64,000 nucleotides of DNA from a virus. Shown here piece after piece: positions 2,497-21,187 of this stretch. The stretch lies in the IMG/VR virus record IMGVR_UViG_3300045988_108148, one strand, 5' to 3'. The position numbers and the translations under genes were made by a program. The notes below the pieces were generated by a model. It had not been told where the DNA came from and searched no databases. It saw only the letters and a program-made list of their open reading frames with translations. Every line of letters starts with the position of its first letter. Positions within the stretch are counted from its first letter, which is position 1.

Positions 2497-3123
2497 ATGC
2501 GAACATACGAAGTATATAAGATAACCAACAAAGTAACTAATAAAATTTATATAGGAATAACAAATCAGGGCTCCGGTGCTAGATACAGACATCATTGGTA
2601 TGAAGCTCGCATCGGAGAACCTGCTCCTATTCATAAATCCATGGCAAAATATGGAGAAGATAATTTCACATTAGAAGTCATTGACTTTGCAGAAAATGCC
2701 GAGGAGTTAAAAGAAAAAGAAAAATATTACATAAAATTCTTTAACAGCAAAGATAGAAAAATAGGTTATAATTTAACTGACGGAGGTGATGGAACTTTTG
2801 GTAGAAGACATTCTGATGAAACTAAAGAAAAAATGAGACAAAAAGCTTTAGGTAGAAAAGTTTCTGAGGAAGCAAAGAAAAGAATGTCAGAAACACACAA
2901 ATTAAATTATTCTGATGAACACAGAAAAGCGGTTGCTGAAAGTAATGCCAGACGTACAAAGAAAGTATTAATGTTTGATAAAGATTTGAATGTAATTAAA
3001 GAATTTAACAGTTTAAAAGAAGCTGCAGCAGAAACTAAAATTCATTCTACAACTATTAGAAAATCCATAAGAGGAAATAAAATAAGTTATGATTATGTCT
3101 TTAGATTCAAAGATGCAGTATAA
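2497..3123 (+). CDS. GIY-YIG homing endonuclease (free-standing, I-TevI/Seg-like)
   Basis: N-terminal motifs VYKITN...IYIGIT, ARYRHH, EKEKYYI and GYNLTDGG match the GIY-YIG catalytic core. NUMOD3-like repeats (GRRHSDETKEKM, GRKVSEEAKKRM) and a C-terminal HTH-like segment (FNSLKEAAAETKIHSTTIRKSI) follow. Confidence 0.85.
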   Translation: MRTYEVYKITNKVTNKIYIGITNQGSGARYRHHWYEARIGEPAPIHKSMAKYGEDNFTLEVIDFAENAEELKEKEKYYIKFFNSKDRKIGYNLTDGGDGTFGRRHSDETKEKMRQKALGRKVSEEAKKRMSETHKLNYSDEHRKAVAESNARRTKKVLMFDKDLNVIKEFNSLKEAAAETKIHSTTIRKSIRGNKISYDYVFRFKDAV

Positions 3124-11913: not shown

Positions 11914-12252
11914 ATGAAATTATCTTTAGTAGATAGAGTTATAATAATAAATTCTATATTGCCAACCACTGGCACAATTGAACAAATTAGAACAATTCTA
12001 TCAATAAAAAACAAAATAAAATTAACAGAGCAAGAAAATGCATCTTTAAAAATAACAGTACCATATAATAATATTATCCAAATTGATAATATTACAGATA
12101 CAATGTTGTTAAGAGATACAGTATATAGTTTTTCTGTAGCTGAAATAGAATTATTAAAGTTGTTCTCTAATTCCATTAATTCAAATGGATGGGTAACTGA
12201 ATCTAGTTTAAGTACAGTAGAATATTTAATCAATTATACAATTGAAGAATAA
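11914..12252 (+). CDS. small protein between fibre genes (possible fibre chaperone/adaptor)
   Basis: The ATG lies 2 nt after the upstream stop, and its stop overlaps the next ATG (taATGa). A mirror ORF on the minus strand was rejected. Confidence 0.5.
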   Translation: MKLSLVDRVIIINSILPTTGTIEQIRTILSIKNKIKLTEQENASLKITVPYNNIIQIDNITDTMLLRDTVYSFSVAEIELLKLFSNSINSNGWVTESSLSTVEYLINYTIEE

Positions 12253-15200
12253 TGATTAAGAATAATGTATATTATGAGTGGTTTGCAAGTATAACCGTAC
12301 CCAATCCAGATCAGGTTGGGTACTGGGTTGACTTGGGAGCAGATTCAAAAGGTAGAATAATTAAAGTTTACAATCGTGATATAGAAAAATGGATTGTACT
12401 CTTTGATGTAAGTAAAGATGACTATGTACCACCATTTATTGGTTCTAATGGCAACTGGTGGGTAGACAATAGAGATACTGGGGTAAAAGCTACTGCAGAG
12501 ACTCCATATATAGGTGAGAATGATCATTGGTTTACTTATGATCCTATCAACAAAGTATATGTAGATACAGGTATAGAAGCTCGTGGTCTTAGTGCTTACG
12601 ATATTGCAGTTAAATTAGGTTTCAAAGGTAGTGAACAAGATTGGATTGATAGTTTAAGTAAAGCATCTGAAGATGCTGCTGTTGCTGCACTAGATGCAGC
12701 TAACAAAGCAAATGAAGCTGCAGATAAAGCTAATCAAGCTGTAACAGATATTGAAGGTATAGTTGATGATGCTATCGCTGCTACTGATAAAGCTGAAGAA
12801 ATTGCTAGTAATCCACCAAAGATCGTAGATAATGATTGGTGGATTTATGACTACGATACTAAACAATATGTTAATACTGGTATAGCTGCTATTGGTGATG
12901 CTTTCACTTACAAGAAGGAATATCCTTCAGTAGAAGCAATGGAAGCTGATTGGGGTACTGCTGATGTAAAGTTAGGTGAGTATGTACTTATTAATACTAA
13001 TAATGTAGAAGATCCTGATGATGCTAAAGTTTACTTAAAGACTCAAGAAGGCTGGAAGTTTATTGTTGACTTATCTGGTATGCAAGGTATTCAAGGTTGG
13101 TCAGCATATGAACTTGCAGTAAAACATGGTTTTGTAGGTACTGAAGAAGAGTGGGTTCAATCATTAAAACAACCTGCATTAGATGCAGCAGCAGAAGCAT
13201 TAGAAGCTAAAGCTCAAGTAGAAGCTACTGAAAAAGCTGTTAAAGAAGCAGAAGCATTACGTGTTACTGCGGAACAAGGTAGAGTCAATGCTGAAAATAC
13301 CAGAGTAAGCAATGAGAATACACGCATCTCTAATGAAGATAACAGGAAAGCAGAAGAGTCTAAAAGGGTAACTGCTGAGAATGCTCGTATTGCTGCTGAA
13401 ACTTCTAGAAAAGAAGCAGAGTCTAGTAGGGTTAATGCAGAGTCAGATCGTGTAGAAGCTGAAGGTGCAAGAGCAGCAGCAGAGCAATTAAGGGCAAATT
13501 CTGAAAGTGAACGTAACACTAAGGAAAAAGAACGTATAGCTAATGAAGCAATTAGAGTTGCATCTGAAAGTGAAAGAGTAACTGCTGAGACTTCTAGAAA
13601 GGAGGAAGAAGCTAAGCGTGTAGAAGCAGAAACAGCTCGTGATACAGCAGAACAGGAAAGGGAATCAAATGAAGCCACTAGACAGGCAAATGAGGCGATT
13701 AGAGAGACTCAAGAGGCTGCAAGGGAAAAGAATACAGCTGATGCTATAACTGCCGTAAATGAGGCTAAAACAGCTGCACAACAAGCTACTACAAATGCAA
13801 CTACTGCTGCTAATAATGCTAACACTCAAGCAGCGAGAGCTAAAGAATATGCAGACAATCCTCCCAAAGTAGGAGAAGATGGTTATTGGTATCTTTGGGA
13901 TGAAGTTGATGATGTATATGTAAATACCGGTTGGCCATCTTCAGGTATTATTTTAAAAGGTAGACTTAACAGTCCAGAGGAACTAGGTGATATAGTAGAT
14001 CCGCAACTTAGTGATTCTTATATTGTTGGTACAGACTTATACTTTTGGAATGGTACAGAGTGGGTTAACATGGGTAGATTCCAAGGACCTCAAGGAGAAC
14101 CCGGTAAAGATGCTGAACTTAGTAAAGCAGCTATTGAAGCTGTATTAGTAGGTGAAGTAACTACTCATACTCATGATACTAGGTATTATACTAAGGATCA
14201 AACTGATGCTAATATAAAGGTAGTAGCAGATGATCTTGCTAACAACTACTATAATAAATCCCAAGTAGATAGTAAATTTACTTCTGTGTACATCTTTAAG
14301 GGATCTGTAGATAGTGTAGAAGATTTACCTACTGAAGGTAATGTGATTGGTGATGTATGGAATGTTCGTAAGAACGATACTAACTATGCATGGACAAGTG
14401 AAGGTTGGGATGCATTAGGAGGTACTGCTGAATTATCTTCATTAACTGCTAATGGTTTGATGTCCAAAGAAGATTTTGCAAAGTTACAAGGTATTGAAGC
14501 AGGTGCACAAGTCAATAAGATTGAAACCATTACTAAAAGAGTACTTTTGAATGTTGTAGATAAAAATGTAACTATACCAGAAGATATCGCAATTAGTCCA
14601 GATGAACCTACCAACAATGAAATCATCTGGATGGATACTGATGAAGATTATGACTTTACATTTGATGGGTATAGTAAAGTAGATGCTGATGCAAGATTTG
14701 TTCATCAAGTAGAGGGAAAAGATTTATCTACTAATGACTACAGTAATGCTGACAAAAATAAAGTAGATAATCTTAATAGTTACGTAACTAGTGGTAGTTT
14801 TGTACAAGATGCAAATAATGCTGCTATTACGTTGAATATTAAAGATCCTGTTACAGATAATAATTCCAATCAAGTACTCACTATTAACAAAGCTACCAGT
14901 ACTACTGCAGGTGTAATGTCTGCTGCTGATAAGACTAAGCTTGATGGGTTGAGTAATTACGATGATTCTACAATTACTCAGGACATTACCAACATAAAAG
15001 CAAACAAACTTGAGACAATTGAAGTAACTGGTACAGGTAATGTAATTACTACAGCTACTAAGAATGGTACTAAGATTGCATTTGCTAAAGGTATTACTGC
15101 AATGACTCAAGATGCTAGCGATGCCAGATATGTCAAAAAGGCAGGAGATACCATGACAGGTGCTCTTAATATAACGGCTGCTGGATACAATACTGAAGTT

Positions 15201-17033
15201 TCTTTAGATGGATTAAAATTAGAGACTTCTAAAACCAGTGCTAATGCAAAAGGTTTATTTTTTAGAAACTTTGATAAAACTGGTTATATTGGTGGAATTG
15301 GAATGTTTTCTACTGGAAACGGATCTATATATAGAGCTTATAATGCTTATGTAGGATGGGATAATAGTCCTTGGGATAGTGCTAATAATCTTACTGTATC
15401 TAAAGATGCATTTACTTATAAGAATAATAAAATATGGCATGCTGGTAATGATGGTTCAGGTAGTGGTTTGGATGCTGATTTGTTAGATGGATACCATGCT
15501 GGATATAAAAATGGTGATCTTGCATTATATATTAATCTTCCAAAAATAACTGATTTAATAAGTCAGGGTTTATTAAGATCAGATTATGAGACAGTTGGCT
15601 ATCCGACAGAGGATTTTTTGATTGCATTATGTAAATGGGCAATAAACAATTATATTGGTGAAACTTCCCATGTATTGCTACAAGGAGAGATTACTCCTGC
15701 TGTCTCGGGGTGGTGTGTTTTGGGTCTTTATGCTAATGATGGAAAAGATAACGCAACAGGATTACCAAAATATTGTTCAGGTCAAGTAAACTTAATTAAT
15801 AAAAGCTCCATATTATTCGGTTCTTATAATGGAACCTGGTATTATAAAACATTAGTAGATACTTCTAATCTAGAAGATACTCTAGCATACTGGTATGAAA
15901 ATGATGAAAACAATTCATCCACAACATGTGCAACAGGTGGTAATAGAAATGTAATTGAATCATTAAGAAGTAAGTTTAAGAGATGCATCGCTATGCCTAG
16001 TGGTGATGATGCTGCATTAATTAGTTATTGTAATGAAGAGGATAGTTCTAAATGGCCAGATAGTACAAACATTACAATTATGAACAACCATCAAAATAGA
16101 ATGGTTTATTTTCCAAAATACTATCACAAAACTATAGAGAGAAGCCCTGGCATTTGGAGAACCTATATATCTGAACAGCAAATAGATAGTAATTACATTG
16201 AAGAACCTGAAATGTTATTAGCTTCATTTGAAGGAGCGATAAACATAGAAGGTATGTTGATAAGTACAGCTTCACAGACAAGTGCAGCTTCAAAAACAAT
16301 GGCTGAGTTTGTTACAGCAGCTAAAACACATGGATCTTTATGGGGTATTGGTGATTATAGATCTCATGCAACTATAGCTAGAATGTTTTGTGCTTACTAT
16401 AAGACTACTAACATTAGTACAAGTAATAGTGCTATTCCATGTTCTGGAGGTACTAAGAGATATGACTACGGTAAGACTGGTGGGACAATAGCTCTTGGTA
16501 ATAAAGACGGTAAAGCTGCAGTTGTAGAAGATACAGGATATTACTCAACTAACTTCTTAGGACTTGAAGACTGCTATTACAGTAAGTGGGAGTTTGTACA
16601 AGGAATAAACATTTTAAAAGGTAAATACGTTGTATATGACGGAGGTTCATTCCCAGATAAGGATGTAGCAGAGCTTGAAGCAGCAGGTGCTACTAATATC
16701 AGAGTTGTGGGATATGAACCTAATCCAGCTGCAACAGCAGCATATAATGGATGGACTAAAGCCGTAGCTCAAGGCAAATATGGTGATGTAGTTCCTACAG
16801 CACATGGTGGATCTGAAACTACTTACTATTCCGATTATAGCTGGTTTAATCCAACAGGAAATAGAATCTTTCTACGGTCGGGTCGTTCGGCTAATGGTTC
16901 TCGGTGCGGGGTCTTCGTGGCTAGTGCTGGTAATGCTTCCTCGCTGTCGTGGGCGAATCTCGGTGCAAGATTAGCCTTTTATGGTAAGATCGTTGTAGTT
17001 GATTCAGATACATTTAAGAAAATGCAGGCATAG
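12252..17033 (+). CDS. tail fibre / receptor-binding protein (1593 aa), DGR target with C-type-lectin-like variable C-terminus
   Basis: Fibre motifs are SAYDIAVKLGFKGSEQDWIDSL, SAYELAVKHGFVGTEEEWVQSL and repeated G..WW.Y/D motifs. It also has a long coiled coil and LSTNDYSNADKNKVDNL-type repeats. The C-terminus ...RSANGSRCGVFVASAGNASSLSWANLGARLAFYG carries the VR. Confidence 0.85.
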   Translation: MIKNNVYYEWFASITVPNPDQVGYWVDLGADSKGRIIKVYNRDIEKWIVLFDVSKDDYVPPFIGSNGNWWVDNRDTGVKATAETPYIGENDHWFTYDPINKVYVDTGIEARGLSAYDIAVKLGFKGSEQDWIDSLSKASEDAAVAALDAANKANEAADKANQAVTDIEGIVDDAIAATDKAEEIASNPPKIVDNDWWIYDYDTKQYVNTGIAAIGDAFTYKKEYPSVEAMEADWGTADVKLGEYVLINTNNVEDPDDAKVYLKTQEGWKFIVDLSGMQGIQGWSAYELAVKHGFVGTEEEWVQSLKQPALDAAAEALEAKAQVEATEKAVKEAEALRVTAEQGRVNAENTRVSNENTRISNEDNRKAEESKRVTAENARIAAETSRKEAESSRVNAESDRVEAEGARAAAEQLRANSESERNTKEKERIANEAIRVASESERVTAETSRKEEEAKRVEAETARDTAEQERESNEATRQANEAIRETQEAAREKNTADAITAVNEAKTAAQQATTNATTAANNANTQAARAKEYADNPPKVGEDGYWYLWDEVDDVYVNTGWPSSGIILKGRLNSPEELGDIVDPQLSDSYIVGTDLYFWNGTEWVNMGRFQGPQGEPGKDAELSKAAIEAVLVGEVTTHTHDTRYYTKDQTDANIKVVADDLANNYYNKSQVDSKFTSVYIFKGSVDSVEDLPTEGNVIGDVWNVRKNDTNYAWTSEGWDALGGTAELSSLTANGLMSKEDFAKLQGIEAGAQVNKIETITKRVLLNVVDKNVTIPEDIAISPDEPTNNEIIWMDTDEDYDFTFDGYSKVDADARFVHQVEGKDLSTNDYSNADKNKVDNLNSYVTSGSFVQDANNAAITLNIKDPVTDNNSNQVLTINKATSTTAGVMSAADKTKLDGLSNYDDSTITQDITNIKANKLETIEVTGTGNVITTATKNGTKIAFAKGITAMTQDASDARYVKKAGDTMTGALNITAAGYNTEVSLDGLKLETSKTSANAKGLFFRNFDKTGYIGGIGMFSTGNGSIYRAYNAYVGWDNSPWDSANNLTVSKDAFTYKNNKIWHAGNDGSGSGLDADLLDGYHAGYKNGDLALYINLPKITDLISQGLLRSDYETVGYPTEDFLIALCKWAINNYIGETSHVLLQGEITPAVSGWCVLGLYANDGKDNATGLPKYCSGQVNLINKSSILFGSYNGTWYYKTLVDTSNLEDTLAYWYENDENNSSTTCATGGNRNVIESLRSKFKRCIAMPSGDDAALISYCNEEDSSKWPDSTNITIMNNHQNRMVYFPKYYHKTIERSPGIWRTYISEQQIDSNYIEEPEMLLASFEGAINIEGMLISTASQTSAASKTMAEFVTAAKTHGSLWGIGDYRSHATIARMFCAYYKTTNISTSNSAIPCSGGTKRYDYGKTGGTIALGNKDGKAAVVEDTGYYSTNFLGLEDCYYSKWEFVQGINILKGKYVVYDGGSFPDKDVAELEAAGATNIRVVGYEPNPAATAAYNGWTKAVAQGKYGDVVPTAHGGSETTYYSDYSWFNPTGNRIFLRSGRSANGSRCGVFVASAGNASSLSWANLGARLAFYGKIVVVDSDTFKKMQA
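13250..13735 (+). repeat. about 11-residue-periodic (hendecad-like) Ala/Glu/Arg coiled-coil repeat region of the fibre shaft
   Basis: Repeating units RVTAEQGRVNAENTRVSNENTRISNEDNRKAEESKRVTAENARIAAETSRKEAESSRVNAESDRVEAEGAR... Confidence 0.8.
16869..16968 (+). repeat. DGR variable repeat (VR); the secure core is 16875..16968
   Basis: Ungapped match to 17140..17239 (offset 271 nt). Of 29 mismatches per 100 nt, 28 lie opposite TR adenines. A local GC spike is caused by A->G/C replacement. Confidence 0.9.
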
Positions 17034-17139
17034 TCCTGAGTAATATAGATAATTAAATATTAATAACAAGGGCGGGATCTAAAAGAATTACTATGAGATG
17101 ACTTTATAGTAAGACTGCTGTCACATTATTTCATACTTG

Positions 17140-17239
17140 AAAAAACAGTCAGGTAATTCAGATAATGGTTCTCGATGCAGAGTCTTCATAGCTAATGCTA
17201 ATAATGCATCCTCGAATTCATAGACGAATATCAGTGAAA
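17140..17239 (+). repeat. DGR template repeat (TR), non-coding
   Basis: It contains 38 adenines in 100 nt and 7 AAT codons in the VR frame. An in-frame TAG shows it is not translated. It lies in a 349-nt ORF-free gap upstream of the RT. Confidence 0.9.
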
Positions 17240-17382
17240 TTTTGGAACTAACAGATACTTTCAGATAATTACAAAAATGTTTGTTGAACTTAGATCAGCC
17301 TTACCTCTAGGTAAAAGATAACAGGTGCTTTGAAGAGACCCTAGTAGTATTGTGCGAACGGGTCTTACCACCAAAATAGCTT

Positions 17383-18423
17383 ATGAAAAGAATAGGCAAT
17401 TTATTTAACAGGATAATATCATATGAAAATCTGGTCCGGGCTGAAAAGAAGGCTAGGCTAGGTAAAACTAAAAGATACGGCGTTAAGAAATTTGACAGGA
17501 ATCCACATGAAAATCTGGTCCGGTTACAAAAGGCATTAATAGAAGATACTTATCGTACTTCGGAATACTGCGTATATACAATCATCGCCGATCGTGGTAA
17601 CAAAGAAAGAGAAATATATAGGCTACCGTATTATCCAGACAGAATAGTCCATCATGCTATAATGAATGTTATAGAACCTTACCTTGTTAGTAGATTTACT
17701 GCAGATACCTTTAACTGTTTAAAAGGAAGAGGTATTCATTATGGAGTAAAGAGATTAAAAAGAGATTTAAAAGCTGATAAAGAAGGCACAAAATATTGTT
17801 TAAAATTAGATATTAAAAAGTTCTTTCCTTCTATAGATCAAGATGTGTTATATTCACAATTTGAAAAGGTATTTAAGGATAAGAAACTATTAAGATTATT
17901 ACATCATGTAGTTTATTCTACACCAAAAGGTTTTCCAATTGGAAATTACATATCTCAATTTGCAGCAAATTTGAATTTGACTTGGTTCGATAGGTGGATT
18001 AAACAAGTATTAAAAATAAAATATTATTACAGGTATTGTGATGATATTGTTATATTACACCCAGATAAAGATTACTTAAGATATTGCTTACAAGAGATTG
18101 AAAAATATCTAGCTGATAACTTGAAATTAAAAATAAAACGTAATTGGCAGATATTTCCTGTAGAAGTAAGAGGTATAGATTTTATTGGTTATGTATTTTA
18201 CCACGGTCATACTTTACTCAGGAAAGATATCAAAAAGAAGTTTATTCATAAATTAAGTTATAAAAGTAATAATAAGAGGCTAGCATCACTAGCAGCTTAT
18301 TGGGGATGGTGTAAATATGGAAGCTGTCATAATTTATGGTATCGCTTTACGAGATCTTATAATTTTAAAGATTATAGACAAAAATTATTAAGTGATGATG
18401 GAATTAAAAAAAGTACAGGGTGA
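17383..18423 (+). CDS. DGR reverse transcriptase
   Basis: RT motifs are LDIKKFFPSID, the DGR-diagnostic PIGNYISQFAANL and the catalytic YCDD (RYCDDIVIL). The size (346 aa) and position 143 nt after the TR also fit. Confidence 0.9.
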   Translation: MKRIGNLFNRIISYENLVRAEKKARLGKTKRYGVKKFDRNPHENLVRLQKALIEDTYRTSEYCVYTIIADRGNKEREIYRLPYYPDRIVHHAIMNVIEPYLVSRFTADTFNCLKGRGIHYGVKRLKRDLKADKEGTKYCLKLDIKKFFPSIDQDVLYSQFEKVFKDKKLLRLLHHVVYSTPKGFPIGNYISQFAANLNLTWFDRWIKQVLKIKYYYRYCDDIVILHPDKDYLRYCLQEIEKYLADNLKLKIKRNWQIFPVEVRGIDFIGYVFYHGHTLLRKDIKKKFIHKLSYKSNNKRLASLAAYWGWCKYGSCHNLWYRFTRSYNFKDYRQKLLSDDGIKKSTG

Positions 18424-18742
18424 TAATATACCTAAAGTAATAGAATACCTAGGAATGAATGAATGGGCAGTTAGATGGGATATTGAAGAAGTTAATTCTG
18501 AAGATATACATGGTTATGCTTATTATGAATTAAAATTCAATGAAGAACCAACCTACGATTCTTTTGTAAGTAAAATCATTAGAACAAAGTATAGTGCAGA
18601 TGAGGAAGCAGCATTAAAATCTAATATGGTTGAACAATTCATGAATGGAGAAATAATGCGTAGTCGTTTTGAAGAATGGCAAGCATTCCAAAATTGTAGA
18701 GACAATGCCAAATCTGTTGGTAGACAAATATTTAATATCTAA
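18392..18742 (+). CDS. small acidic protein downstream of RT (start ambiguous: GTG 18392, ATG 18395 or ATG 18455); possible fibre-assembly accessory
   Basis: The ORF overlaps the RT 3' end. The motif IIRTKYSADEEAALKSN...FEEWQAF resembles tail-fibre-assembly-associated domains. Net acidic charge. Confidence 0.45.
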   Translation: MMMELKKVQGDNIPKVIEYLGMNEWAVRWDIEEVNSEDIHGYAYYELKFNEEPTYDSFVSKIIRTKYSADEEAALKSNMVEQFMNGEIMRSRFEEWQAFQNCRDNAKSVGRQIFNI

Positions 18743-18744
18743 TT

Positions 18745-20508
18745 ATGGTAATTAAAGTAAAAAATAATGGGGAATGGGTTAAGATACCATACCTGAGCTC
18801 GGATAACAATCCAATAATTCCAGAAGCTCCATTAGACGGTAAACAATATGCTAGACAAAGTGGTGAGTGGACAGTAGTCAACATACCAGAAGTAGATTTT
18901 ACTGAAATAAATAAAAAAATATCTCAAAACACTGCTGCTATTGCTGCTAATACTACAGCTATCCAAAGTAAAGTAGATAAGGTAGATGGATTTGGACTTA
19001 GTTCTAACGACTACACCTCTCAGGAGAAAACTAAGTTAGCAGGTTTAAGCAATTACACGTTGCCTACAGCTTCAGACACAGTTAAAGGTGGTATTAAAGT
19101 TGGTACAGGTTTAACCATGAATGGGGAAGTACTTAGTGCAACTGGTGGTGGTATGGCAGATTCAGTTGAATGGGATAATGTATTAAGTAAACCAGAATTT
19201 GCTACAGTTGCTACAAGTGGTGCATATAATGACTTAACTGGTAGACCAAGTTTAGCTACAGTTGCCACTTCTGGTAGTTATGCAGACCTTAGTAATAAAC
19301 CAACTATACCTACTGTGGATGTAACAAAGTCTTATGTAGATACACAATTAGCTACTAAAGCTAATGTAAGTAATGTATATACAAAAGCTGAAGTAGATAG
19401 TAAAGTTAGTAGTGTTTATAGAGTAAAAGGGTCTGTTGCTAGTTACGCTAACTTACCTACTGTGGATGTAACAATAGGCGATGTTTATAATGTTAATGAT
19501 ACTGGTGCAAACTATGTGGCTACATCTACTACACCAACATGGGATAAACTCAGTGAAACTGTAGATTTATCTGGTTATGCAACTACTGCTGCAATGAACT
19601 CAGCATTAGGTAACAAGGTTGATAAAGTATCAGGGAAATCCCTTAGTACAAATGATTATACTACAGCTGAAAAAAATAAGTTAGCTGGTATTGCAGCTAG
19701 TGCAAATAATTACAGTTTGCCTGCAGCTACTTCATCTGTGTTAGGAGGTGTTAAAACTAGTACTGGTATTACTAACTCATCTGGTACAATTAGTGTAACA
19801 TATGGTACTGCAGCTGGAACTGCTTGTCAAGGAAATGATTCGAGACTAAGTAATTCTCGTCCAGCATCTGATGTTAGTGCTTGGGCTAAAGCTAGTACAA
19901 AACCAACTTATGCTTGGACTGAAATTACAAGTAAACCTAGCTGGATTGGTTCATCTAAGCCCACCTATACAGCATCTGAAGTTGGTGCGTTAGCTAGTGG
20001 AGGTACTGCAGTAAATGCATCGAAAGTTGCCAATTCATTTATATTTAAAGTAGCAGGAGGAAGTACAGAAGGTACAAATTTGTATACCTTTAATGGATCT
20101 GCAGCTAAAACAATTAATGTAGTAGCTGGTAGTAATGTAACCCTTACTCCTACTGCAGGACAATTAAGTATATCTGCTAAAGATACCACATATGCAGTTG
20201 CTACCACATCCGCTAACGGTCTAATGAGTTCTGCAATGGTAACCAAATTAAATGGTGTAGCCACTAATGCTAATAATTATTCATTACCAACAGCAACCAG
20301 TTCTGTATTGGGTGGAGTAAAAACTGGAAGTAACATTACAAATTCTTCTGGAACTATTTCTTTAAGCAGTGGTAATGTAACTAGCGCACTAGGCTACACA
20401 CCTGTTAAAAATGAATCTGGTGTAGCAAGCATTAGGGTTATGACTCAATCTGCATATGATGCATTATCAAGTAAATCAGCAACAACGTTATATATAATTA
20501 CAGGTTAA
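18745..20508 (+). CDS. tail fibre protein (587 aa) with internal modular repeats
   Basis: It has three LS.NDYT..EK.KLAG - NY(T/S)LP.A(S/T)..V.GG(I/V)K modules and ATVATSG.Y.DL repeats. Thr/Ser/Gly-rich. Confidence 0.75.
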   Translation: MVIKVKNNGEWVKIPYLSSDNNPIIPEAPLDGKQYARQSGEWTVVNIPEVDFTEINKKISQNTAAIAANTTAIQSKVDKVDGFGLSSNDYTSQEKTKLAGLSNYTLPTASDTVKGGIKVGTGLTMNGEVLSATGGGMADSVEWDNVLSKPEFATVATSGAYNDLTGRPSLATVATSGSYADLSNKPTIPTVDVTKSYVDTQLATKANVSNVYTKAEVDSKVSSVYRVKGSVASYANLPTVDVTIGDVYNVNDTGANYVATSTTPTWDKLSETVDLSGYATTAAMNSALGNKVDKVSGKSLSTNDYTTAEKNKLAGIAASANNYSLPAATSSVLGGVKTSTGITNSSGTISVTYGTAAGTACQGNDSRLSNSRPASDVSAWAKASTKPTYAWTEITSKPSWIGSSKPTYTASEVGALASGGTAVNASKVANSFIFKVAGGSTEGTNLYTFNGSAAKTINVVAGSNVTLTPTAGQLSISAKDTTYAVATTSANGLMSSAMVTKLNGVATNANNYSLPTATSSVLGGVKTGSNITNSSGTISLSSGNVTSALGYTPVKNESGVASIRVMTQSAYDALSSKSATTLYIITG

Positions 20509-20509
20509 T

Positions 20510-21187
20510 ATGATAAAGTTAGGAAGTACAGATATAACAAATGTAATGTTGGGAACAACTAAGGTGGACGCAATATTTCTTGGCAATACGAAAGTGTATC
20601 CAAATCCACCTGTAGTAGAAGGAGTATATGTATATCACGTGGATAAGAAATTTTATACTTTTCCTGAATTTCAAAAATTATCCAATACTGCTATATCACA
20701 AGTTCTTGGATTTGCTATTATAGATAATCAAGGTTCGTTTTTATTGCCACCTAGAGTAAATCTATCTAATGGCTACAGGTGGTGTCCTGAAAATTTTGAT
20801 ACTTTCCTAGTACCAGATGTTGGAATTGGTGTTGATGATATTAATGGTAGACAAAATACAGAAATAATGCACGATACCTTTCAAAATGTTGCTGGATCAA
20901 ATGAGTATGCTGCTGGATATGCATATCGTTTTACTCCTGTACCGATTGGTACTAATTGGTATTTACCATCTATTGGTGAACTTATTATAATTTACATGTA
21001 TATGTCAGAATTGAATGATTGGGTATTTGATACATTTGGCTTTTCTTATTTTGGTTATAAAGCTCTTTGGTCTTCCACACAACAAGATGCTACTACAGCT
21101 TGGCAATTAGATATTTCTGGTAGTGCATACAATACAGTAGCAAAGAGAACCCTCAACGCAGCACTCCCAGTAATTAAATTAGGTTAA
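20510..21187 (+). CDS. DUF1566/Lcl-C-like (C-type-lectin-fold) small fibre-associated protein
   Basis: The motifs WYLPSIGEL ... ALWSSTQQDATTAWQLDISGSAY match the DUF1566 pattern (W.LP...EL ... WSST ... AW). It lies immediately after a fibre gene. Confidence 0.5.
   Translation: MIKLGSTDITNVMLGTTKVDAIFLGNTKVYPNPPVVEGVYVYHVDKKFYTFPEFQKLSNTAISQVLGFAIIDNQGSFLLPPRVNLSNGYRWCPENFDTFLVPDVGIGVDDINGRQNTEIMHDTFQNVAGSNEYAAGYAYRFTPVPIGTNWYLPSIGELIIIYMYMSELNDWVFDTFGFSYFGYKALWSSTQQDATTAWQLDISGSAYNTVAKRTLNAALPVIKLG

Follow-up and report, generated by a model that had tools for sequence, protein, structure and literature searches.

Is the 3' end of a long tail fiber gene in the viral record IMGVR_UViG_3300045988_108148 rewritten by a diversity-generating retroelement (DGR), and does that element still operate? 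The window, by which we mean the whole stretch of DNA analyzed, comprises 64,000 nucleotides (nt), and the parts of the proposed cassette lie on its plus strand. A sequence-only reading had proposed that a variable repeat (VR) at the end of the gene for a 1593-amino-acid (aa) fiber, a template repeat (TR) behind it, and a reverse transcriptase (RT) gene form a complete DGR, and that this DGR drives programmed hypervariation of a fiber in a crAss-like phage. Our analysis upholds programmed hypervariation of the fiber, with an adenine-specific repeat pair, an intact RT of the DGR clade, and, among 42 genomes, a TR that is conserved and a VR that is randomized. We consider it very probable that the locus is a functional DGR with the architecture target gene-VR-TR-RT, without the accessory protein Avd, in a gut phage of the Suoliviridae (delta) group of crAss-like phages.

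The anatomy of the repeats provides the first line of evidence. When VR 16869-16968 was compared by script with TR 17140-17239 at the constant offset of 271 nt, the manual counts of the earlier reading were reproduced: 29 mismatches in 100 nt, 28 of them opposite TR adenines (16 A>G, 6 A>C, and 6 A>T), and a single non-A difference, T>G (VR G16946 versus TR T17217). The TR holds 38 adenines, of which 28 are altered and the reported 10 are unchanged in the VR. Read in the VR frame, it contains seven AAT codons, as had been noted, and an in-frame TAG; the corresponding VR codon, TGG (Trp), is nearly fixed across the 42 genomes. The VR is in frame with the open reading frame (ORF) 12252-17033 and encodes FLRSGRSANGSRCGVFVASAGNASSLSWANLGARLAFYG, the peptide quoted previously; it covers codons ~1542-1572 of the 1593-aa ORF, which is the DGR arrangement of a VR in the C-terminal coding part of the target and TR adenines at codon positions 1 and 2 (AAY codons). 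The RT ORF starts at 17383, indeed 143 nt past position 17239.

In an independent repeat search, no direct repeat of the region was larger than 16874-16968/17145-17239 (95 nt, 75% identity). At the non-A positions of this 95-nt TR, the VR agrees in 61 of 62 cases, whereas the next best site on either strand of the whole 64 kb agrees in 33 of 62. Given 33 A in 95 nt, the hypergeometric probability that at least 23 of 24 mismatches fall on A is 3e-13. By repeat search, non-A matching, and this probability, the pair lies far beyond chance, and the adenine specificity that had been claimed for it held up in the mismatch counts as well as in the scoring of non-A positions. Restriction of TR/VR differences almost entirely to TR adenines, by which DGRs are recognized, thus amounts to 28 of 29 differences here, or 23 of 24 in the core. 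No second VR for this TR was detected elsewhere in the 64-kb window on either strand.

Comparison of related genomes provides the second line of evidence. A scan of IMG/VR with the RT yielded ~50 loci at >90% RT identity, 41 of which align gap-free to window positions 16769-17382; together with the window they make up 42 genomes with 41 distinct sequences. Entropy per site is low in the flanks (0.048 bit), the TR (0.048 bit), the TR-RT spacer (0.040 bit), and the 61 VR positions opposite non-A (0.065 bit), and rises to 1.11 bit where the VR faces a TR adenine (34 positions; Mann-Whitney p 4e-10 for A versus non-A positions of the VR). Three or four alleles occur at 25 of the 34 A positions, compared with 1 of the 61 non-A positions. 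When each VR was compared with its own TR, the pooled differences comprised 623 A>G, 188 A>C, and 107 A>T, that is 918 A>N against 31 non-A differences. The check proposed earlier, namely whether polymorphism is confined to positions opposite TR adenines, was run here on the 42 assembled genomes rather than on reads, and the variation proved to be confined in this way.

The same genomes indicate how fast the VR changes. Mean pairwise VR divergence is 15.6 per 95 nt; it is saturated and does not correlate with how far the genomes differ in 1560 nt beyond the VR (rho 0.02). Even the closest non-identical genome pair differs at 13 of 95 sites inside the VR compared with 7 of 1560 sites (0.45%) outside. 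Forty-one distinct VRs were counted in the 42 genomes, next to a conserved TR, which is the behavior expected of a DGR between related genomes. Judged from these alignments, the VR is re-randomized faster than the genomes diverge. At some TR adenines the VR base is fixed, as where TGG (Trp) replaces TAG and at 16876, 16880, 16908, and 16962, all with G; this would be expected if they encode scaffold residues or lie beyond the tract that is transferred. Beyond the immediate lineage, 25 relatives had enough upstream sequence for a VR/TR scan, and 24 of them, down to 50% RT identity, carry VR/TR pairs with mismatches mostly or entirely at TR adenines.

Two further observations concern the repeats of these relatives. 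Among the non-adenine VR/TR differences at 16890-16958 in the 41 relatives, T>G accounts for 14 of 25, mostly at a T directly 3' of an adenine, which is the third position of AAT codons; either an RT error that depends on context or selection favoring Lys codons could account for this excess. In addition, one related contig has 16 A>N substitutions in the center of its TR (L035:2777-2826, corresponding to window 17160-17208), which leaves this TR with only 18 A. Both ends of this TR are canonical and its altered center differs from the VR of the same contig, so that it was either overwritten by a VR-like variant or is a chimeric assembly.

The limits first assigned to the repeats, 16869-16968 and 17140-17239, need a small correction: the pair is real, and the true repeat falls short of these limits by a few nt at either end. 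At the 5' end, 16869-16873 (TTTCT opposite AAAAA) is invariant or nearly so across the 42 related genomes and probably lies outside the repeat, its A-to-N mismatches arising because an A run precedes the TR. At the 3' end, the TR of the distant relatives L048, L084, and L087 reads ...AATATCAGTTCACAGTgaaattttgg, whereas that of the window lineage reads ...AATATCAGTgaaattttgg, with a 7-nt deletion (TCACAGT). For this comparison, window 17230-17245 was set against L048:2840-2860, L084:4850-4875, and L087:4850-4875. The VR segment that matches the deleted TR end has diverged (GCAAGA versus TCGCGG). With the deletion in the TR and this divergence in the VR, homology therefore stops at ~16965/17236, and the A>C at 16966 probably also falls outside the repeat. 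The true repeat is likely ~16874-16965 for the VR and ~17145-17236 for the TR, which is A-rich and noncoding; hypervariability across genomes extends over 16884-16959. This core of ~92-95 nt contains 23-24 mismatches, 22-23 of them at A, and the boundary shift leaves the conclusion unchanged. Since all 42 genomes share the deletion and yet hold 41 distinct VRs, diversification continued after the TR had been shortened.

In the DGR of Bordetella phage BPP-1, the initiation of mutagenic homing (IMH) site consists of a GC-rich element and a downstream hairpin; generally, IMH sits at the 3' end of the VR and its counterpart IMH* at the 3' end of the TR. Downstream of the last variable site, 16959, the VR of the window ends in an invariant segment, 16960-16968 (TCGGTGCAA), identical in 42 of 42 genomes. 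Within it, VR and TR show fixed differences at 16962 (G versus A) and 16966 (C versus A), and relatives display the same fixed G-against-A pattern at their VR and TR 3' ends. We regard 16960-16968 as a candidate for an IMH-like limit to information transfer. Selection for the conserved Gly of a G(A/S)RL(A/C)F motif would be another explanation of why G is fixed at 16962. In all 42 genomes sharing the deletion, minimal 3' VR/TR homology appears compatible with continued turnover of the VR.

The third line of evidence is the RT itself. The ORF at 17383-18423 encodes an intact protein of 346 aa that matches RVT_1 (E value 2e-16) and phrog_1423 (E value 3.5e-107). The earlier description as a DGR-type RT with the motifs PIGNYISQ and YCDD proved correct: the protein is full length, and its best relative in the PDB is the BPP-1 RT, bRT (8ub7, E value 7.6e-44), with residues 2-326 aligned to 3-323 of 328. 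PIGNYISQ aligns with PIGSLTSQ and YCDD with YMDD of bRT, and the window thus contains, adjacent to the repeats, a DGR-clade RT with motif 4 of the form [ILV]GxxxSQ and the catalytic motif YxDD. Group II RTs were far weaker matches in the PDB search (E value 2.5e-15). CrAssphage LMMB and many of the crAss-like genomes in RefSeq encode homologs 44-50% identical to the RT, and 35% identity connects it to Bacteroides phage p00 and LoVEphage relatives. A 29-nt direct repeat, 17420-17448/17504-17532, with 83% identity, also lies within the RT gene, in its 5' part, and is reflected in a repeated ENLVR peptide.

Which protein is being diversified? The ORF at 12252-17033, with the VR in its last ~50 codons, matches phrog_5302 ('tail protein') over residues 1252-1576 (E value 5e-43) and also phrog_3904 ('tail fiber protein'), in agreement with the proposal that the VR encodes the C-terminal tip of a 1593-aa tail fiber; Pfam returned no match for this ORF. 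We modeled the C-terminal 353 residues (15972-17030) with AlphaFold2, using 44 homologs, and obtained a mean predicted local distance difference test (pLDDT) value of 72.4 and a predicted template modeling (TM) score of 0.77, with low confidence exactly across the VR (model residues 301-329). In a Foldseek search of the PDB, the only matches with an E value <0.001 were chains of the DGR variable protein TaqVP (5vf4; E value 5.8e-5, probability 1.0, TM score 0.41), and no sequence-level PDB match to the fiber tip was found with either the single sequence or the 44-sequence profile. The C-type-lectin-like tip postulated earlier is therefore supported at moderate strength by its fold match to TaqVP, which comes from a medium-confidence model with a TM score of 0.41 and no accompanying sequence-level match. 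With moderate confidence, the variable residues appear to be displayed on a C-type-lectin-like fold, and the segment resembles the receptor-binding domains of DGR variable proteins in the model. Over the variable span 16884-16959, the TR design permits ~8e11 protein variants and involves ~16 residues.

Homologs of the 15972-17030 product (P0001-P0104) place the targeted domain on much shorter proteins (~350-620 aa) in many related phages, one example being P0015, a protein of 474 aa encoded by 19 contigs. In the window lineage, the variable tip thus seems to be a module joined to a long fiber; some of the short lengths may represent truncated gene calls.

Between TR and RT gene, positions 17297-17386 may form a structured RNA element resembling the Rfam families RT-17 and RT-18, an assignment that combines sub-threshold Rfam matches with comparison of relatives. 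Each of the two Rfam matches is full length and reaches as far as the RT start codon. In seven relatives with RTs ~50-55% identical to that of the window, RT-17 scores above its gathering threshold, located between TR and RT, 18-40 nt past the TR. Three putative stems were delineated. P1 (17302-17305/17310-17313) shows GC to AU covariation in 9 of 25 sequences; P2 (17324-17327/17369-17372) lies within the RT-17/RT-18-like element; and P3 (17335-17341/17360-17366) encloses a conserved UAGUAG...CGAA. In P3, GAGACCC/GGGUCUU of the window is matched by compensatory changes in L087 (GGGACCU/AGGUCCU) and in L048. RNAalifold, applied to a MAFFT alignment of 25 spacers, recovered P1 alone, and the thermodynamic z-score of the TR plus spacer RNA was uninformative (-0.4). 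This element is presumed to be the RT-binding and priming part of the DGR RNA. Weinberg et al., who located the RT-10 motif of BPP-1 between its TR and RT, speculated that further DGRs make use of other RT motifs (PMC5737381); the present loci fit this idea for RT-17.

Avd is a basic four-helix bundle encoded by ~74% of DGRs and is not universal. We did not find it by Pfam searches of the cassette ORFs and of 26 small ORFs of the window. In this respect the term 'complete' DGR needs qualification: the Avd-less target-TR-RT architecture is complete, and Avd is absent from the ORFs searched. Avd-less DGRs are a recognized class (Architecture A, Lineage 3), and Wu et al. noted that Lineage 3, which lacks avd, must rely on a variant mechanism (PMC5758913).

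Several observations weigh against the reading of the locus as a working DGR, or against parts of it. Besides the missing Avd, a BPP-1-like GC-rich IMH with hairpin was not evident downstream of the VR, where the search revealed nothing beyond a weak hairpin of 4 bp that spans the stop codon. VR/TR homology beyond the last variable site extends for only ~6 nt, following the 7-nt TR deletion. In the window, the Rfam matches of the spacer stay below their gathering scores (29.8 bits for RT-18, with a threshold of 41.3, and 26.3 bits for RT-17, with a threshold of 40.4), and the fold assignment of the tip depends on a pLDDT-72 model with a TM score of 0.41. Avd is essential in BPP-1, the one DGR studied in depth. 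Finally, the evidence for activity is of the between-genome kind and stems from assembled genomes.

These points feed the most serious alternative, in which the fiber was diversified in the past, the DGR is now inactive in the window genome, and the VR/TR pattern is a frozen record. The lineage-specific shortening of VR/TR homology by the TR deletion, the failure to find Avd or a clear IMH, and the between-genome nature of the activity evidence are all compatible with such a fossil, and other crAss-like groups commonly carry decayed cassettes (PMC7290462, PMC11054128). However, the lineage retains an intact RT ORF, conserved at 95-99%, and a strongly conserved TR, with 0.048 bit per site. A frozen record also fits poorly with 41 distinct VRs among genomes that share the deletion and with VR divergence that is saturated even at a background divergence of 0.45%. 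We therefore judge a fossil DGR to be very unlikely.

Far less credible still is an origin of the pair by tandem duplication of the gene 3' end, followed by divergence or positive selection, with an unrelated RT (of a retron, group II intron, or defense system) nearby. Diversifying selection is indeed common on fiber tips, and the RT shows weak NCBIfam similarity to group II, Drt, and retron models. Nevertheless, it falls below the cutoffs of all NCBIfam models for these families (in bits, 103 versus 300 for group_II_RT_mat, 67 versus 200 for Drt3a, and 63 versus 235 for retron_St85) and is closest to bRT, while the TR is noncoding and contains an in-frame stop. Neither selection nor drift would be able to confine 918 of 949 differences to the A of the second copy or to keep that copy invariant, and on these sequence grounds we regard the duplication as effectively refuted. 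That the VR diversity consists of assembly artifacts or chimeras, built from k-mers common to VR and TR, is similarly implausible: the altered center of the L035 TR could be a VR/TR mis-join, but in 41 of the 42 genomes the TR departs from the consensus at three positions at most, the VRs derive from many samples and assemblers that are independent of one another, RefSeq genomes among them, and a chimera would put TR sequence into the VR and lower the number of mismatches instead of placing all four bases at A positions.

For the functional DGR, which is the reading we prefer, standard mutagenic retrohoming can be outlined as the mechanism by analogy with the family. The noncoding TR (~17145-17236) would be transcribed along with the downstream spacer, which would fold into the RT-17/RT-18-like element and recruit the RT encoded at 17383-18423. 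The RT would copy the TR RNA into cDNA, misincorporating opposite template adenines, and the cDNA would then replace the VR (~16874-16965) at the 3' end of the fiber gene, leaving the TR unchanged. Each round could re-draw ~16 residues of the C-type-lectin-like tip, given that the TR adenines lie mainly in the seven AAT codons, and would keep the scaffold residues encoded without adenines. The receptor-binding role of the tip is likewise inferred, and the expected result would be rapid retargeting of host-receptor recognition.

A small acidic ORF immediately behind the RT gene is the main lead from this locus. Located at 18392-18742, with a likely ATG start at 18395, it overlaps the RT stop, encodes 116 aa with an isoelectric point (pI) of 4.75 and is conserved beside this RT clade, being present wherever the RT lineage of the window occurs. 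A profile search with this ORF collected 464 proteins of 115-134 aa from Bacteroidales, Ignavibacteria, and phage contigs, and no Pfam domain was detected in any of them. Gene context was analyzed starting from the small ORF itself, by means of four diverse proteins and a scan of 185,579 species genomes. In 42-43 of the 47 loci with enough upstream DNA (~90%), a DGR RT ends -4 to +47 nt from the start of the small ORF. The pairing extends across phage backbones that are unrelated, crAss-like podophages and temperate Bacteroidales prophages with integrases, the downstream genes of which are quite different. This side observation covers loci L084-L136.

The protein bears no resemblance to Avd by PDB sequence search or by search with the modeled fold. 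Its model (pLDDT 89.6) consists of a beta-sheet and three helices, not an Avd-like bundle, and matches no PDB structure and, in BFVD, only uncharacterized phage proteins. At three loci lacking both RT and TR (L112:1552-3384, L126:904-2667, and L135:1555-3372), the small ORF stands directly 3' of a homolog of the target (...GSRLCFIP), and a weak paralog of it stands behind another tail gene in the phage cr50_1. In view of these loci and this paralog, a role as partner or chaperone of the diversified fiber is at least as likely as one as an RT cofactor. That the small ORF supplies the missing cofactor of Avd-less Bacteroidota-phage DGRs, replacing Avd beside the RT and an RT-17-type RNA, is a possibility that we rate as rather unlikely; it might then belong to the CH1 family or its kin. 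CH1 is a small, acidic (pI 4.7), motif-free, uncharacterized accessory protein of 160-169 aa, known only from avd-less DGRs of a Bacteroides-associated lineage (PMC5758913). Compared by description only, CH1 and the small ORF share their acidity (pI 4.7 versus 4.75) and the avd-less context, in the window that of a Bacteroidales-phage DGR, and differ in length (160-169 versus 115-134 aa).

The crAss-like nature of the phage, also part of the earlier reading, was borne out by kinship to the phages cr10_1 and cr50_1, by a CrAss_Ring_2 tail ring protein, and by an ORF of 5089 aa. The 8.3 kb at 12252-20508 are 93.7% identical to cr10_1 (NC_055875; Crassvirales, Suoliviridae, Boorivirinae, Canhaevirus hiberniae), whereas the DGR region is 90% identical to cr50_1 (NC_055868, Cohcovirus hiberniae) with only the fiber gene covered. 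Conversely, 30-54 kb (30000-54000) is 96.5% identical to cr50_1, while 19% of it matches cr10_1, at 86%. In terms of nucleotide identity, then, the window is a mosaic, its DGR region being closest to cr10_1 and its 30-54 kb part closest to cr50_1. At the DGR locus, cr10_1 and cr50_1 share with the window an RT that is 95-97% identical, the same TR, and the same small ORF, and their VRs differ from that of the window at TR-A positions. In their RefSeq records the RT is annotated, VR and TR are unannotated, and the target is a 'hypothetical protein'.

A DGR acting on a crAss-like fiber is already published, and the window adds a well-documented member. The first crAss-like DGRs were described in 2020 in genus I of the Intestiviridae; they have the order target-VR-TR-RT, lack avd, and were assigned to Lineage 3 and the C-type lectin class CLec3 (Morozova et al., PMC7290462). 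Later, DGRs were reported in the epsilon and zeta crAss-like groups (PMC11054128, PMC12386605), and the epsilon paper mentions that cassettes had been found in Suoliviridae (PMC11054128). The main text of Yutin et al. 2021 (PMC7886860), which is cited elsewhere for delta crAss-like DGRs, contains no mention of DGRs or RTs, and our literature search found no paper describing the Boorivirinae cassette itself. The DGR of crAssphage LMMB, from genus I of the Intestiviridae, resembles that of the window in its target-VR-TR-RT order, the lack of avd, and the position of the VR at the fiber C terminus (PMC7290462), and its RT is 44% identical to the window RT over 93% of the query. It differs in that the LMMB group belongs to the Intestiviridae and targets a 486-aa tail-collar fiber, whereas the window belongs to the Suoliviridae/Boorivirinae and targets a 1593-aa fiber. 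Moreover, identical IMH and IMH* were reported for LMMB (PMC7290462), in contrast to the very short 3' homology and the 7-nt TR deletion of the window.

With the BPP-1 system (Mtd/Avd/TR/bRT), the window shares adenine-specific TR-to-VR transfer into the C-terminal tip of a fiber and the RT motifs IGxxxSQ and YxDD. BPP-1, however, needs a basic Avd pentamer and has a GC-rich IMH with hairpin and an RT-10 RNA, whereas the spacer of the window is RT-17/RT-18-like; in the fold search, the window tip model matched TaqVP, not Mtd. TaqVP (PDB 5vf4), a DGR variable protein of Thermus aquaticus, is the sole significant match of that model, at 14-16% sequence identity and a TM score of ~0.4, and is a bacterial protein, unlike the phage fiber domain of the window. 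It was also the top match for the DGR target of an epsilon crAss-like phage (PMC11054128). Also close are the A1/Lineage 3/CLec3 DGRs of Wu et al. 2018 (PMC5758913), which likewise have an Avd-less TR-RT core and, in some cases, very long targets. The VR of the window ends in GARLAF and those of relatives in GSRLAF or GSRLCF, which, judged by eye, resembles the CLec3 'SRLC/A' (PMC7290462). By sequence, the cassette has the gene order, the lack of Avd, and the CLec3-type ending of Architecture A1 DGRs, the CLec3 call being made by eye, and is a candidate member of Lineage 3.

Other features of the window were noted in passing. Two genes downstream of the RT, a 225-aa ORF (20510-21187) has a sub-threshold match to Lcl_C/DUF1566 (21.6 versus 34.9 bits) at residues 148-217. 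Lcl_C/DUF1566 is a lectin-like domain class that is diversified by DGRs elsewhere; no VR matching the window TR was found in this ORF. The ORF at 2497-3123 contains GIY-YIG and NUMOD1 domains and is probably a homing endonuclease inserted among structural genes. A perfect 21-nt repeat, 19307-19327/19454-19474, with its copies 147 nt apart, lies in the gene for a 587-aa tail protein.

In the human gut, crAss-like phages rank with the most abundant viruses, and their hosts are mostly unknown. A working DGR at the fiber tip would mean that, in this Suoliviridae lineage, receptor specificity is re-drawn faster than the genome diverges, which would bear on host prediction, on strain tracking by this locus, and on the long-term persistence of these phages. 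The locus would also represent a natural Avd-less DGR that operates with minimal 3' VR/TR homology and offers a candidate RNA element and a candidate protein partner.

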